DNA from: Archaeoglobus fulgidus DSM 4304
GTDB taxonomy: Archaea; Halobacteriota; Archaeoglobi; Archaeoglobales; Archaeoglobaceae
Direction: 5' to 3'
Assembly: GCF_000008665.1 (NCBI RefSeq)
Contig: NC_000917.1
Location: 600,001 to 632,000, forward strand
Length of the DNA: 32,000 nt
Both the position numbers and the translations under genes were made by a program. This document shows, piece after piece, positions 24,350 to 29,095 of the stretch (positions are counted from its first letter, which is position 1; each line of letters starts with the position of its first letter). Below the pieces are notes generated by a model. It was not told where the DNA came from and searched no databases. It saw nothing but the letters and a program-made list of their open reading frames with translations.

Positions 24350-25287
24350 AAGCGCTATACTGGCTGCTTATCGGCTTCCTATCCTCAACTCTTGCAGAAG
24401 TGCTCTCATCATCCCATCCTGCAGGTGTGTTTGATGCATGGGGAATTGGGGTGATTTTTCCTCTCTACTCCCTCCACGCTCTCGTTCTGGGTGGCTGGCT
24501 TTTCCGGCTGGGTGTGAACTGGCAGAGGCTCTTTCTTTTCGGCTGCGTTTTCGGGATGTATGAGGCCTACATCACAAAGGTTCTCTGGAACCCCTACTGG
24601 GGGCCAGACGCCTTCCAGTTTCTGGGAATCTACTGGTTTCAGTTTGCTGTTCTCGTATTCTTCTGGCATCCAATTTTTGCCTTCATTTTACCTCTGCTGA
24701 TTGCAGAGTACATCTACACAAGCTCAAACACTCTGCTGAACGCAGCAAAGCAGTTTCCACTGATGCAAAAAGCTGGAAAGAAGTTTGCCCTGCTTTTAGC
24801 AGCATTGGCCGGACTCAACCAGTCAGTCAACACTCCTCCGTCTATGTTTTGGGTTGCTCTGCTGAGCTTCTTCACCATTCTAACCCCATCCTTCCTGCTG
24901 GAAAAGAGGAAGATTGAGGATATAATGCCCAGCGGTAGGGTTTTGAAGTTGCTAACCTTCGCCCTGATAATCCTCTACCTTTTCTGGACCTTTGCCCTGA
25001 GATTCGACAAAATGGGAAGCTTTTCGGGCCAGCTGGTCGTCTGGCTTTTCTACCTGCTTCTCTTCTATCTCATAATAAACATCAAAAGCTGTAAACCTGA
25101 GAGCAAGACAAGCGAGAAAAAAGGTGAGAGAAGATTTTTTGCTGCCTGCTTCCTCGTCTATCTGACTGCCTTCCTTATCACCTCCTCATTCAAGGCCTTT
25201 CCTGCTGCAATGCTTTTCCTTCTTGCAGGAACTGCCTACGGCACCATTGTTTTTGCCTCGATTCTAATCAAATTCTTGATGAGATGA
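24346..25287 (+). CDS. Polytopic integral membrane protein, unknown function
   Basis: 313 aa with about 8 hydrophobic helices. It is rich in aromatic residues (WNPYWGPDAFQFLGIYWFQFAVLVFFWHP). It overlaps the upstream stop by ATGA. Confidence 0.7.
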   Translation: MKALYWLLIGFLSSTLAEVLSSSHPAGVFDAWGIGVIFPLYSLHALVLGGWLFRLGVNWQRLFLFGCVFGMYEAYITKVLWNPYWGPDAFQFLGIYWFQFAVLVFFWHPIFAFILPLLIAEYIYTSSNTLLNAAKQFPLMQKAGKKFALLLAALAGLNQSVNTPPSMFWVALLSFFTILTPSFLLEKRKIEDIMPSGRVLKLLTFALIILYLFWTFALRFDKMGSFSGQLVVWLFYLLLFYLIINIKSCKPESKTSEKKGERRFFAACFLVYLTAFLITSSFKAFPAAMLFLLAGTAYGTIVFASILIKFLMR

Positions 25288-27201
25288 CTTTAAAAACCAG
25301 CTCAGCTCCTCCCACGCTTTATCGAGCAGTTTTCTGTAGTATCTGACGTCAAAATACGAGTGGTTCCTCACACTGACGACCTTCCTCTTGGAGTCAGCAA
25401 CCACGTATTCCACAACCATCCCTGGCTTGATTTCAATTCCTGCCTTTCTGTACTCTCTGATTGCCGAAGATTCCAGCAGCTTTTTTCCGTATTCCGCCTT
25501 TCCAACAACCTTTCTGATAATCATTTCCTCAGGCCTCGCCCTTCTTATGTTCTCGGCATATCTCTCGTAAATCCGTCTCAGCTCGGGGAAAAGCCTGAGA
25601 AGCTCGCCAGCGCTTCTTGCTCTTTTCATAACATCAAAGCACTCCCTCTGCATTCTTTTCACGTACTCCGGTACGTCACGCCTTCTAGCCATAACCCCCC
25701 TGAGCTTCATCTCTCCGCTGCTCAGCCTGCCGTAATAGCGGTTGTACGCTCCACTGCCGTCCTTCATCGGAAGAAAGACTATCCAGTCGAACTTCTCCAC
25801 CTCGGTCAGCAGGCCCGTTTCCTCCTCAACCCTCGCCTGGAAGCTGCCGATGTCTTCACCCCTAACCCACAAGCAGTCAACTATCCCGTGAAGAACCTTA
25901 AAGCCTAGCTCCTCCGCAATTTCCTTTGTTTTTATAAGAATTTCTCTTCCGATTCTGTTTATCTCCTCGTGAACCTCTATTCTGCCGAACTTGGCGTTTC
26001 TGTAGCCGGTGTAGCCGAAGCAAGTGACGAGCATCCACTTGAGAATTGAGTCCACTCCCGCATAGCGGGAATCCTTCCTCTTAAGGCTCTTCGTCTTTAT
26101 CCTCAGCCTGAGAAGGGGCTCGAGCACCTCCGCCAGGAATCCCCTCCCCTCCTTTCCGATGCTCTCTGGTGAGAGATTGTGCTTCACAATTATCGACGGA
26201 TACATGGACGTGAAGTCGAGCTGCCAGACGTTCTCGTAAATTCCGGGTTCGGGCTGGAAAATCATCCCGCCTCTGTCCGAGAATCTCAGCTCCTCGATGC
26301 TCTTAACCCTCTCAGCGTCGCTCTTTCTGAATGGCACCGCAATGCCCCTCATCAGCGCCTCAAAGACCTCGTAAAGCGAGATGAGCGAGCCGGGTGTGAT
26401 TCGGGATGCGTGGTTTGGGGATATGGCGGATATCCTTGAGGCGAGTAGAACTCCCCTAAGCCCACCCTCCCTGAAGTTGAAGGAGTTCGAGTCTATGAGA
26501 ACTCTTCCCTCCGGTATCAGGGCCTGCTTTCTGTATCTCGCCCTGCCGTAGCTCCAGTAAACCTTCTGAGAGAGCTTCCGAAATCTTCCGGTTCTGCTCA
26601 TCGCCTTCAAGCCGAGATGCTGCATCCAGAAATCCGCATCCTCCATCACAACGATGTCGGGATTCATGTCCTCCATCGCACCGGAAAGCTCCTCTAACAG
26701 CTCTTTCTCGCTGCCCTCAATTCTCTTCCCGTTTATGCTCATCTCCTCGACCTCGGGTTTGAAGACATCTCCCTTAACACCCACCCTTAGAACTTCAAAC
26801 GGCAGGTCGAAGTCAGCCTCAAACCTTTCCGAAACGTCTTCGAGAACGTGAGAGCACGGAAAAATCCTTTTTCTGGCCATGAATTTCTGCTCCAGCCTAA
26901 CGTCAACGTTGAAGAGCTTAGCATCCTTTGCCTGCCTCTCTATCATCTCCGCAACCTTCCTCCCGGCGTAAATTCTGTATCCTTCAATTTCACCGTAAAT
27001 TGTTTTGAAAGTGCACTCCTCAACTTTGTAGCGAGTTTCCAGAGCCTCTAAAAGCTCAACGTGGAGAGCTCTGTCGGGAAAATGCAGAAAAAAGTAATTT
27101 TCAAACCTGAAACTTCTCCTGACAACTTTTCCGTTCTCCTTCTTGATCCAGAGGTCAATCCCCCTTCCCGAAGGCGCGCAGTCCAGTATCCACATTTCCA
27201 T
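25264..27201 (-). CDS. Family B DNA polymerase homolog with degenerate exonuclease motifs and degenerate motif C (probable inactivated PolB, PolB2-like)
   Basis: ~645 aa. Motif A DFTSMYPSII (26188-26217) is intact. Motif B is KWMLVTCFG rather than Kx3NSxYG. At the YxDTDS position it reads LHGIVDCL (25864-25899). No ExoI DxE was recognised, and the ExoII region is NPDIVVMEDADFWMQHL. Confidence 0.85.
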   Translation of the reverse strand: MEMWILDCAPSGRGIDLWIKKENGKVVRRSFRFENYFFLHFPDRALHVELLEALETRYKVEECTFKTIYGEIEGYRIYAGRKVAEMIERQAKDAKLFNVDVRLEQKFMARKRIFPCSHVLEDVSERFEADFDLPFEVLRVGVKGDVFKPEVEEMSINGKRIEGSEKELLEELSGAMEDMNPDIVVMEDADFWMQHLGLKAMSRTGRFRKLSQKVYWSYGRARYRKQALIPEGRVLIDSNSFNFREGGLRGVLLASRISAISPNHASRITPGSLISLYEVFEALMRGIAVPFRKSDAERVKSIEELRFSDRGGMIFQPEPGIYENVWQLDFTSMYPSIIVKHNLSPESIGKEGRGFLAEVLEPLLRLRIKTKSLKRKDSRYAGVDSILKWMLVTCFGYTGYRNAKFGRIEVHEEINRIGREILIKTKEIAEELGFKVLHGIVDCLWVRGEDIGSFQARVEEETGLLTEVEKFDWIVFLPMKDGSGAYNRYYGRLSSGEMKLRGVMARRRDVPEYVKRMQRECFDVMKRARSAGELLRLFPELRRIYERYAENIRRARPEEMIIRKVVGKAEYGKKLLESSAIREYRKAGIEIKPGMVVEYVVADSKRKVVSVRNHSYFDVRYYRKLLDKAWEELSWFLKSSHQEFD

Positions 27202-27415
27202 CAAGCTCCTTCAGGAGCTCAACAAGCACGGAGAAGATCGCCGCTTCCAGTGGGTCATCGAAGGTGTAAAACGCCTCGCTGCTGTGCTTCCTGACCATGC
27301 CGGCAAGCTTTATGGCGTAAAGGCTTTCCTCCTTCTTCATAGCCTTTGCAGTCCTCTCCCACCGCTCTGCAATCCTCTTTACCCCCATTCTAACGCTTGA
27401 AACGCTCCTTCCCAT
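27155..27415 (-). CDS. Small hypothetical protein (86 aa) between the RecA-like and PolB-like genes
   Basis: Its ATG follows the upstream stop directly (TGAATG), and its 3' end overlaps the PolB-like start by 47 nt. The helical, charged sequence looks more protein-like than the opposite-strand ORFs. No family recognised. Confidence 0.45.
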   Translation of the reverse strand: MGRSVSSVRMGVKRIAERWERTAKAMKKEESLYAIKLAGMVRKHSSEAFYTFDDPLEAAIFSVLVELLKELDGNVDTGLRAFGKGD

Positions 27416-27988
27416 TCAGAACACCTCCAGCGTGAGCTGTCCAACCATCTTCGGATAGAAGCGCTGGTTTATTCCCTTCTCATCAACTTCCGCTATGAAG
27501 TACCCACCCTCCTCAGCCTCAACGAGGATGTAGCGGTCCGCGAGCGTGGTTAGAAAGTCAAAGATTCTGTCTCGATTGGTTGTGAAGTAAACGACCGTTC
27601 TGTCCCTCCCTATTTGCCTCAGAAGCATTACGAAGTCCTCAAGGGTGTGGAAATCGCAGTCCTCAAAGAGTAGTGCGTCGTGCTCGATGAATATCATGTC
27701 CTGATAGGCGTTGAGGAGAATCTCTATTAGCTGGTGAATTGTAAAGCCTCTCCTCACCCTGAAGTTCCCCCTGATACCATCCAGAGCCTTTGAGCTGTTT
27801 CCACACACGTATAGCGCTGGAAATCTGCTTCTGTAGCCGTTCAAAAAGTCAAGGCACACTTCCAACGGTGCGGCTACAGCGTTGAACCCTCCATACACCT
27901 CAACCGAAAGTACCTCAATCATAGTAGGTAATGCTCCAAGGTCAATATAAACTTCGACCCCCGGATGCAAGTGAAAAGGATTATACAT
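27416..27988 (-). CDS. Hypothetical protein, possibly a RecA/KaiC-fold domain lacking the P-loop GK[ST]
   Basis: 190 aa with an AAGGAG RBS ~8 nt upstream. By-eye alignment to the KaiC/RadB pattern: VEVYGGFNAVAAP at the Walker A position, ALYVCGNSS, the Walker-B-like DMIFIEHDALLF, TVVYFTTN and ADRYILVE. The fold assignment is inference. Confidence 0.55.
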   Translation of the reverse strand: MYNPFHLHPGVEVYIDLGALPTMIEVLSVEVYGGFNAVAAPLEVCLDFLNGYRSRFPALYVCGNSSKALDGIRGNFRVRRGFTIHQLIEILLNAYQDMIFIEHDALLFEDCDFHTLEDFVMLLRQIGRDRTVVYFTTNRDRIFDFLTTLADRYILVEAEEGGYFIAEVDEKGINQRFYPKMVGQLTLEVF

Positions 27989-28009
27989 ATTAACGTCTCC
28001 TTTACATTA

Positions 28010-29095
28010 ATGCTCTCGTGGGATGAGACGCTCTTCAAAAATCCGGAGGTCTTCGACCCTGACTACATTCCGGACGAGTTGCTGTTCAGGGACGGCCAGA
28101 TCAGGCAGCTTGTGTCGTGCATAAAGCCAGCAATGCTCAACTCGTCCCCGATTAACGCATTCTGCCTCGGACCGCCGTCAACGGGAAAGACCTCGACGAT
28201 AAGGTACGTTCTCAGAGAAGCTGAGAGAGAAACGGGGCTGCTTTACTCCTACATACGAATCCCGAGGTTCAAGGAGCCCTACAAAGTCTTCTCCAAAATT
28301 TTTCAGGACGTTCTGGGACAGCAGTCCCCGCCATCCGGGATAAGCAAAACGGTTTTGATGGACAGAGTCTGGAGCAACCTTGACGAGCCCCTTTTGGTCG
28401 TTCTCGACGACATAAACTTCCTCGGAAAGAATTACGCCAACGAGATTCTTTACGAAATCCTGAAGGCTCCAGACGAGTACGGAGTTAAGGTGGGAATAGT
28501 TGCAGCAGCCACCGATGTAAAGTTCCCCCTGCTACTCGACCCCTTCGTGGGGGCATCGTTCCACTACATGGAGATACACTACCCCTCGTACGGCTATGCG
28601 GAGATTGAGGGAATTTTGAGGAAAAGGGTCGAGCACGGATTTTACGAAGGGGTTTTCGATGACGGGGCATTCAGAAGAGTTGTTGAGCTCGCATACAGGG
28701 CGAGTGATGTCAGGTACGGAATATACCTCCTAAAGGCTGCGGGAATGAACGCGGAGAGCAGGGGGAGCAGAAAGGTTGAGGAGAGGGACGTTGAGGTCGC
28801 CCACGCCGGAGAGTCCCTTTCATTCATAGCAAAGATTCTCACGGCCCTTAACAGCGAGGAGAGGGCAGTTCTCAGAATGATATACTCCCAGAACGCAATT
28901 TCAACCGGCGACCTTTACGAGCAGGTGTGCAGCGAAATTAAGATGAGCTACAGAAAGTACTACAACATCCTCGAAAAGCTCGAAAGGCTGAAGCTGATTG
29001 AAATCTCCTTCGGAGAAAAGGGGAGAGGCAAGACGAGATATGTGCAGGGAAAATACGATGCAGAGGTTGTTGATAGGGCGATGCAGCTGATTTAG
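28010..29095 (+). CDS. cdc6: Orc1/Cdc6 family protein (divergent paralog)
   Basis: The ATG at 28010 gives MLSWDETLFKNPEVFDPDYIPDELLFRDGQI. Walker A is GPPSTGKTS. Walker B is VVLDDINFL (DD rather than DE). The C-terminal winged helix is STGDLYEQV...YYNILEKLERLKLIE..GEKGRGKTRYV. Confidence 0.9.
   Translation: MLSWDETLFKNPEVFDPDYIPDELLFRDGQIRQLVSCIKPAMLNSSPINAFCLGPPSTGKTSTIRYVLREAERETGLLYSYIRIPRFKEPYKVFSKIFQDVLGQQSPPSGISKTVLMDRVWSNLDEPLLVVLDDINFLGKNYANEILYEILKAPDEYGVKVGIVAAATDVKFPLLLDPFVGASFHYMEIHYPSYGYAEIEGILRKRVEHGFYEGVFDDGAFRRVVELAYRASDVRYGIYLLKAAGMNAESRGSRKVEERDVEVAHAGESLSFIAKILTALNSEERAVLRMIYSQNAISTGDLYEQVCSEIKMSYRKYYNILEKLERLKLIEISFGEKGRGKTRYVQGKYDAEVVDRAMQLI

Follow-up and report, generated by a model that had tools for sequence, protein, structure and literature searches.

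The genes upstream of PolB2 in Archaeoglobus fulgidus very probably encode iRadA and PPB2, accessory proteins of a putative mutasome

An archaeal operon composed of PolB2, an inactivated RadA (arCOG07763, arCOG04294, and arCOG08101) and a small helical protein (arCOG07300) was predicted by Makarova et al. (2014), who found that a gene for arORC2 often adjoins it (PMC4104785). The RadA-like group that includes the protein of Archaeoglobus fulgidus needed HHpred for its assignment to RadA (PMC4104785). The names iRadA and PPB2 come from the later study of Timinskas et al. (2025), which modeled a PolB2:iRadA:PPB2x3 pentamer and described an MGRT arm in PPB2, a motif in PolB2 that resembles the oligomerization motif of RadA, and clamp-binding motifs at the C-termini of iRadA proteins (PMC11791011). 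Enrichment of Orc1-type genes in the neighborhood was also seen in that study, and these neighbors are now read as damage-response regulators (PMC11791011). In Sulfolobales, PolB2 (Dpo2) is reported to be a catalytically active translesion polymerase that is induced by damage and without which targeted mutagenesis does not occur (PMC11791011). Here we describe the PolB2 locus of A. fulgidus DSM 4304 in a window of 32,000 nucleotides (nt), which is the whole stretch that was analyzed (positions 600,001-632,000 of contig NC_000917.1); coordinates of features are window positions. A preliminary description of the window had drawn attention to two open reading frames (ORFs), of 190 and 86 residues, that lead into the polymerase gene. 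These are very probably iRadA and PPB2, the accessory genes of the A. fulgidus PolB2 operon, whose products would be parts of a putative mutasome.

The iRadA-PPB2-PolB2 module of this locus is already described in the literature. The A. fulgidus entries in the supplement of Timinskas et al. (2025) include iRadA as WP_048064269.1, which is the sequence of the larger protein, PPB2 as WP_048064268.1, which is that of the 86-residue protein, and PolB2 as WP_010878196.1, with "IVD" as its motif C. The locus is entered there in group 1a with an orc1/cdc6 neighbor, and the pentamer model has a predicted local distance difference test (pLDDT) score of 86.6 and an interface predicted TM score (ipTM) of 0.79 (PMC11791011).

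The fold of the larger protein was read from its predicted structure. An AlphaFold2 (AF2) model, built on 69 sequences, has an overall pLDDT of 84, with values above 90 over residues 30-180 (numbered throughout as in the 190-residue ORF), and consists of a core of alternating strands and helices. In a Foldseek search of the PDB, the matches were RAD51 paralogs, RAD51, KaiC, BcsE, FlaH, RadA, and RecA (E about 3e-7, probability 1.0). When the matches were re-aligned with VIA, Dmc1 gave a Z of 14.5 with a root-mean-square deviation of 3.1 Å over 163 residues, Rad51, RadA, RecA, and Rad51 paralogs gave Z values of 13.6-14.4, and the top 50 matches were all Rad51, Dmc1, RadA, RecA, or Rad51 paralogs. 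The part of the Rad51/Dmc1 chains to which the model aligns, approximately residues 75-340, consists of the core without other domains. Judged by the model, the larger protein is a Rad51/RadA core domain without the N-terminal helical domain and without the P-loop. The preliminary description had proposed a RecA-superfamily fold devoid of a P-loop, and this is borne out; KaiC, which it had named beside RecA, is not the nearest fold, recombinases filling the top 50 of the VIA ranking.

The loss of the P-loop can be located within the model. The signature GxxxxGK[ST] is absent from the sequence, and between the first core strand (residues 34-39, FNAVAA) and the helix after it (residues 42-50) there is only A40-P41, both of which are conserved. 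With these two residues as the sole link between strand and helix, the P-loop is deleted, not mutated, and the usual binding or hydrolysis of ATP would not be possible for iRadA. The Walker-B-like strand ends in E102-H103-D104, of which E102 is invariant and D104 nearly so. The motifs that had been singled out earlier as marking the strand/helix rhythm (DMIFIEHD, TVVYFTTN, and ADRYILVE) all coincide with predicted strands, at residues 98-102 for DMIFIEHD, 131-136 for TVVYFT, and 152-159 for RYILVE. Among 1.84 billion cluster representatives, a profile search recovered 387 relatives of iRadA, mostly of 165-185 residues. Together with the homologs of PPB2, which number at least 159, these representatives indicate conservation far beyond chance.

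The 86-residue ORF, as had been suspected, encodes a genuine conserved protein. Its homologs occur in Archaeoglobi, Methanothrix, Methanomassiliicoccales, and other lineages at 55-90% identity, and most of them carry a precomputed Pfam tag, PF26485 (DUF8156). In our local Pfam scan of the window protein PF26485 was not listed, and nothing significant was found for it in Pfam or NCBIfam. The protein begins with MGRSVSSVR, and so has the MGR[TS] arm, including R3 and R9, that defines the N-terminus of PPB2; G2 is invariant, and M1, R3, S7, V8, and R9 are each at least 90% conserved. The AF2 model (pLDDT 71.5) is helical, with helices at residues 5-24, 28-43, and 55-74, in keeping with the three main helices expected of PPB2 proteins, which are all-helical and about 90 residues long. 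A wide fold search with this model in VIA returned only generic helical matches, the best at a Z of 5.6, and the likeness to the N-domain of sigma factors that the literature reports for PPB2 was not reproduced in that search. The conserved core comprises residues 1-72, and residues 73-86 form a variable tail that overlaps the start of PolB2. In genome searches, the distance from the end of the core to the PolB2 start was 1-5 nt in several lineages. The overlap is thus made by a variable tail that, past a conserved junction for coupling, reads on until the next out-of-frame stop is reached.

Some genomes have two matches to PPB2, one of which begins at profile position 9 and thus has no N-terminal arm (G040:C47, G134:C3, and G088:C1:1277901-1278110). 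In G040 and G134 the armless copy is found at a distance from the PolB2 locus, and in G088 it adjoins PolB2. These copies recall the published remark that, where PPB2 is duplicated, only one copy retains the MGRT arm.

The third gene encodes a family B polymerase that matches NCBIfam NF004416 at 1029 bits. In an alignment of 35 sequences of the family, motif A is intact (DFTSMYPS) and its D327 is invariant. Motif C reads HGIVDC, in which H436, G437, and D440 are invariant in the same alignment and the first Asp is replaced. The exonuclease motifs are degenerate.

The association of the three genes extends well beyond A. fulgidus. Among the 151 genomes of the phylum that were searched, 12 have a close PolB2 (more than 800 bits). 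PPB2 adjoins PolB2 in 11 of the 12 and iRadA likewise in 11, both being present in 10. Co-occurrence of the tightly coupled trio across lineages, which the preliminary description had put forward as a check, is supported. In one exception (G127) iRadA is located elsewhere, and in the other (G160) PPB2 was not found with the query used. In a thirteenth locus (G040), truncated by the end of its contig, all three genes can be seen. The order orc1 <> iRadA-PPB2-PolB2 is held in six other Archaeoglobus genomes and partly held in loci of other families and classes.

More distant and less complete loci were also seen. PPB2 adjoins PolB2 in a divergent group at 430-480 bits (G078, G086, G094, G125, and G139; family f12), where iRadA was undetectable with a profile of the Archaeoglobus type; the iRadA of this group presumably belongs to a different one of the three arCOGs. 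One genome of the Archaeoglobaceae (G014) has two extra copies of iRadA without PolB2, L008 (G014:C26) and L012 (G014:C60). L008 has an in-frame stop upstream and a PPB2 remnant split across two frames, and from its sequence looks like a decaying copy; L012 adjoins an orc1-like gene and has neither PPB2 nor PolB2. At L010 (G027:C6, approximately 930-1960), intact iRadA and PPB2 are directly followed by only residues 460-551 or so of PolB2, which suggests a large N-terminal deletion of PolB2 in that genome.

On the minus strand of the window the three ORFs extend over 27416..27988 (190 residues), 27155..27415 (86 residues), and 25264..27204 (646 residues when counted from a TTG), and a divergent Orc1/Cdc6 ORF lies beside them on the plus strand. 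The features as we interpret them are collected in Table 1. The iRadA stop directly abuts the PPB2 start (TGAATG), a fusion that the preliminary description had read correctly. The overlap of PPB2 and PolB2 that it gave, 47 nt, is right for the RefSeq start of PolB2, ATG 27201; from ATG 27195 it becomes 41 nt. The latter ATG begins MWILDC, the N-terminus common to all PolB2 orthologs, and is probably the start of the gene. For Orc1/Cdc6, the long form of the ORF (from ATG 27965, MQVKR...) runs into the promoter region and is absent from the ortholog in G008, which begins at the methionine of MLSWDE. The start is therefore likely to be ATG 28010 (MLSWDE...). With this start, and with that of iRadA at 27922, the apparent 21-bp gap between the opposing ATGs becomes an intergenic region of 87 bp.

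Table 1. Features of the PolB2 locus of A. fulgidus DSM 4304 (window positions)
Feature	Position	Strand	Basis
iRadA, inactivated RadA/Rad51-like protein, 168 residues plus stop (probable extent)	27416..27922	-	coding signature, fold, match to published iRadA
C-terminal QLTLEVF, candidate PCNA-interacting (PIP-like) tail of iRadA	27419..27439	-	motif conservation
GGAGGTG, Shine-Dalgarno-like, 6 nt before PPB2 ATG, within final iRadA codons	27422..27428	-	junction read directly
PPB2 (arCOG07300 / DUF8156, PF26485), 86-residue helical partner of PolB2	27155..27415	-	homologs, model, synteny
PolB2, family B DNA polymerase, motif C = IVD (probable start)	25264..27195	-	NF004416, invariant residues
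Divergent promoter region, 87 bp	27923..28009	.	TATA-like boxes, seven-species nucleotide alignment, lack of coding signature
Orc1/Cdc6 paralog, divergent, usual neighbor of archaeal PolB2 operons (likely start)	28010..29095	+	NCBIfam NF001624, 470 bits

The start of iRadA was placed from codon-position statistics on six ungapped Archaeoglobus orthologs and a nucleotide alignment of seven Archaeoglobus species. The frame of the 190-residue ORF is open in all seven genomes. Its codons 1-12 (about 36 nt) are almost invariant at all three positions. In codons 13-22 the variable sites number 7, 7, and 3 at positions 1, 2, and 3, and the pairwise differences are 6 synonymous versus 75 non-synonymous. 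Beginning with codon 23, each block of 22 codons has 17-21 that vary at position 3, and synonymous changes exceed non-synonymous ones in most such blocks. The coding pattern thus sets in exactly at M23 (27922). The relatives of iRadA from other lineages begin at the equivalent of M23, except that one family representative (P0136) has no Met at this position, and residues 1-21 of the 190-residue form have AlphaFold pLDDT values below 50. The coding signature from codon 23, the M23 starts across lineages, and the low pLDDT before them all argue that iRadA starts at M23, giving the protein of 168 residues that RefSeq has and the literature uses. Of the two ORFs in the preliminary description both exist, and the length of 190 residues is to be revised. 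An AAGGAG is found 8 nt before ATG 27988 in the A. fulgidus strain only. As a Shine-Dalgarno site for that ATG it was rejected, the GGAG not being conserved in the other Archaeoglobus species.

The 66 nt upstream of M23 appear instead to belong to a promoter region, as they hold two back-to-back TATA-like boxes. One, TTTATATT on the minus strand (27944-27951), starts 29 nt before the iRadA ATG; the other, TTATACAT on the plus strand (27981-27988), starts 29 nt before the orc1 ATG at 28010. In archaeal promoters, such spacing of the TATA box fits two divergent leaderless transcripts, and we infer that the iRadA and orc1 transcripts are of this kind. Between the boxes lies a block, 27953-27976, whose nucleotides are almost identical in the seven Archaeoglobus species and which is conserved better than the adjoining coding DNA. 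This 24-mer, TTTCACTTGCATCCGGGGGTCGAA, is unique in the genome even when up to 3 mismatches are allowed, and near matches to its 16-mer core occur at chance level only. An ORB-like or otherwise repeated operator, or a regulon with a repeated motif, is therefore not supported. For orc1 and the PolB2 operon as a pair, the block is a candidate operator.

At the other end of iRadA, the protein terminates in QLTLEVF, in which Q184, T186, and L187 are invariant or nearly so and are the best-conserved positions outside the core. Among 96 full-length representatives of the family, Qx[TS]Lxx[hydrophobic] is present within the final 16 residues in 42, and in 29 of these carriers it is flush with the C-terminus; elsewhere there are 5 matches in 15,645 residues, so that the motif is strongly enriched at the C-terminus of the family. 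Two proteins of the same genome end similarly, RNase HII in QKTLDDF and FEN-1 in QATLERWF. A crystal structure shows the QKTLDDF of RNase HII (residues 199-205) as a PIP box in complex with A. fulgidus PCNA, and pull-down requires it (PMC3089482). QLTLEVF-COOH fits seven of the eight positions of Qxx[LIM]xx[aromatic][aromatic], the final aromatic being missing, as it is in QKTLDDF-COOH. Binding of PCNA by the iRadA tail is a reasonable prediction from these sequences.

An assembly of the three proteins was addressed by a complex prediction for PolB2, one PPB2 (the pentamer being larger than the limit of 1000 residues), and residues 23-190 of iRadA, with iRadA as the partner. The score was 0.39, against 0.01 for the best control, which is classed as "weak support". 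Of 80 solved complexes 58 attained that mark, as did 2 of 110 mismatched pairs; at 0.60 or under, it was attained by only 7 of the 80 and by the two mismatched pairs. Between runs at least 90% of the contacts are shared, and the partner has a pLDDT of at least 81.

Several observations weigh against reading the two ORFs as parts of a clamp-bound mutasome, and they concern the RadA assignment, the complex, and the tail in turn. A profile search of PDB sequences with the larger protein found no recombinase and noise only (E of 0.24 or more), and hhalign gave no significant match of iRadA to a shallow alignment of nine RadA sequences (probability 0.3). As no link to RadA was found here at the level of sequence, the assignment to RadA rests on structure and on the HHpred result of the literature. 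The hhalign result does not argue against homology, the RadA alignment being shallow, and the lack of a match is explained by the position of A. fulgidus iRadA in the most eroded of the RadA-like groups. For the A. fulgidus proteins the complex, its stoichiometry, and PCNA binding are in silico throughout. A canonical PIP box has a second aromatic that QLTLEVF lacks, and the ribosome-binding site of PPB2 lies within the codons of the tail, which may add to the conservation of the tail. Two stand-alone copies of iRadA with no PPB2 downstream (L009 and L012) retain the tail motif, so the overlapping site does not account for its conservation. In the published supplementary table the clamp-motif columns are empty for A. 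fulgidus iRadA, the motif scan having given no call, and the same table scores QLTLEAFS in the iRadA of a relative (PMC11791011). We infer that A. fulgidus was left blank due to a motif of eight positions overrunning the end of the protein.

Other explanations of the locus were also considered. If PolB2 were a dead polymerase, its operon could specify a non-catalytic structural or regulatory complex, for instance one that modulates origin recognition with Orc1/Cdc6. Makarova et al. raised the possibility of a non-catalytic complex in 2014 (PMC4104785), and it would suit the replaced first Asp of motif C (IVD), the degenerate exonuclease motifs, an iRadA without a P-loop, and the conservation of the Orc1/Cdc6 gene as a neighbor. 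We hold it to be highly unlikely, as the Sulfolobales enzyme is reported to be active, damage-inducible, and needed for targeted mutagenesis, Orc1-type neighbors are now seen as regulators of the damage response (PMC11791011), and D327 and D440, the two metal-binding Asp positions that active family B enzymes keep, are invariant in the 35 sequences. The preliminary description had preferred a structural or regulatory complex to enzymes, a view that is outdated for the same reasons. The physical complex it envisaged agrees with the published reading (PMC4104785; PMC11791011) and is weakly supported by our complex prediction. Its observations are thus partly confirmed and its interpretation partly supported. 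An exceedingly unlikely alternative is that the larger protein is a generic degenerate member of the RecA superfamily, or a signaling protein like KaiC or DUF835, that is unrelated to the polymerase and adjacent to it incidentally. One UniRef name for a homolog is "DUF835 domain-containing", KaiC, FlaH, and BcsE are among the Foldseek matches, and copies without PolB2 exist (L009 and L012). A KaiC or DUF835 identity was rejected, since Pfam and NCBIfam scans of the protein gave nothing significant and no match to either family, and since recombinases make up the entire VIA top 50; the adjacency of iRadA to PolB2 in 11 of the 12 genomes with a close PolB2 also speaks against an incidental neighbor.

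The form of 190 residues might itself be real, with ATG 27988 as a start behind AAGGAG and with an N-terminal extension of 22 residues specific to Archaeoglobus. The frame that stays open in seven genomes, the conserved first 12 codons, the GGAG of the A. fulgidus strain, and the P0136 sequence without the Met would all fit such an extension, which we nevertheless judge highly unlikely. Codons 1-22 have no coding signature, as is evident from the preponderance of non-synonymous differences in codons 13-22 and from the invariance at every position in codons 1-12; the GGAG is not shared by the other species; and the same stretch contains TATA-like boxes correctly spaced from the M23 and orc1 ATGs. 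The M23 starts in other lineages, the low pLDDT of residues 1-21, and the 168 residues of RefSeq and the literature point the same way.

Taking the two ORFs as iRadA and PPB2, the working of the locus can be pictured as follows. The TATA-like box that precedes the iRadA ATG by about 25 nt would drive transcription of the operon, probably into a leaderless mRNA. Translation of PPB2 would be coupled to that of iRadA at the stop-start junction with its internal GGAGGTG, and translation of PolB2 would be coupled in turn through the placing of its start at the end of the PPB2 core. The products may assemble as a PolB2:iRadA:PPB2(x3) mutasome, a translesion polymerase for damage tolerance, as published models and Sulfolobus genetics suggest. 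Within it, iRadA would be a structural subunit, held by the RadA-oligomerization-like motif of PolB2, one PPB2 arm would reach the cleft near the active site, and the C-terminal QLTLEVF of iRadA would probably tether the complex to PCNA. Regulation in response to damage would likely fall to the divergent Orc1/Cdc6 paralog. Of this picture, the present analysis shows the gene structure, the fold, the absence of the P-loop, the family membership, and the synteny; complex formation, PCNA binding, translesion function, and regulation are proposed. A more specific proposal, possible but rather doubtful, is that iRadA is the clamp adaptor of the mutasome by way of a minimal seven-residue PIP (QLTLEVF) that the published scan missed, and that 27953-27976 is the operator through which the Orc1/Cdc6 paralog turns on both the operon and itself after DNA damage.

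What Pol V is to bacteria and Pol zeta to eukaryotes, the PolB2 operons would be to archaea, namely multi-subunit translesion polymerases for damage-induced mutagenesis. What is known of the PolB2 holoenzyme is still computational, which makes a tractable set of proteins from a hyperthermophile useful for biochemistry; structures of PCNA, FEN-1, and RNase HII of A. fulgidus are already solved. The iRadA start of the preliminary description is corrected here, and what looks like a 21-bp gap before orc1 is a divergent promoter of 87 bp. To the known module, the present analysis makes one small addition, the candidate QLTLEVF tail left blank in the published table.

The system closest to this locus is the putative PolB2-iRadA-PPB2 mutasome of Sulfolobus islandicus and other archaea (PMC4104785; PMC11791011). 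The same three families are present in the commonest order (group 1a) with a divergent orc1/cdc6, and the two share an iRadA without the N-terminal domain and the ATPase residues, a PPB2 with the MGR[TS] arm, R3, and R9, and a PolB2 motif C of the form I-x-D. Nothing categorical differs, A. fulgidus iRadA being a member of the most eroded RadA-like group. The iRadA tail resembles the PIP box of RNase HII from the same organism in having Q-x-T-L-acidic-x-F-COOH at the extreme C-terminus, but binding by the latter is proven by a crystal structure and pull-down, whereas the iRadA tail is known from sequence. Paralogs of Rad51/RadA, such as RadB, XRCC2, and RAD51D, also provide an accessory or RecA-core-only recombinase fold as a structural partner, and Rad51/RadA paralogs are among the best structural matches of iRadA (Z about 14). 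They keep Walker A, even if weakened, while in iRadA the loop is shrunk to Ala-Pro. The E. coli Pol V mutasome (UmuD'2C-RecA) has been argued to be alike in that a translesion polymerase is bound to a protein of the RecA/Rad51 family by an oligomerization-like motif, and in that a small subunit extends an N-terminal arm toward the active site (PMC11791011). Pol V differs in that its polymerase belongs to family Y and not B, and in that its small subunit is unrelated and the stoichiometry is another. The RecA of Pol V, moreover, is the active, ATP-binding recombinase of the cell; iRadA, which has no P-loop, is a dedicated copy.

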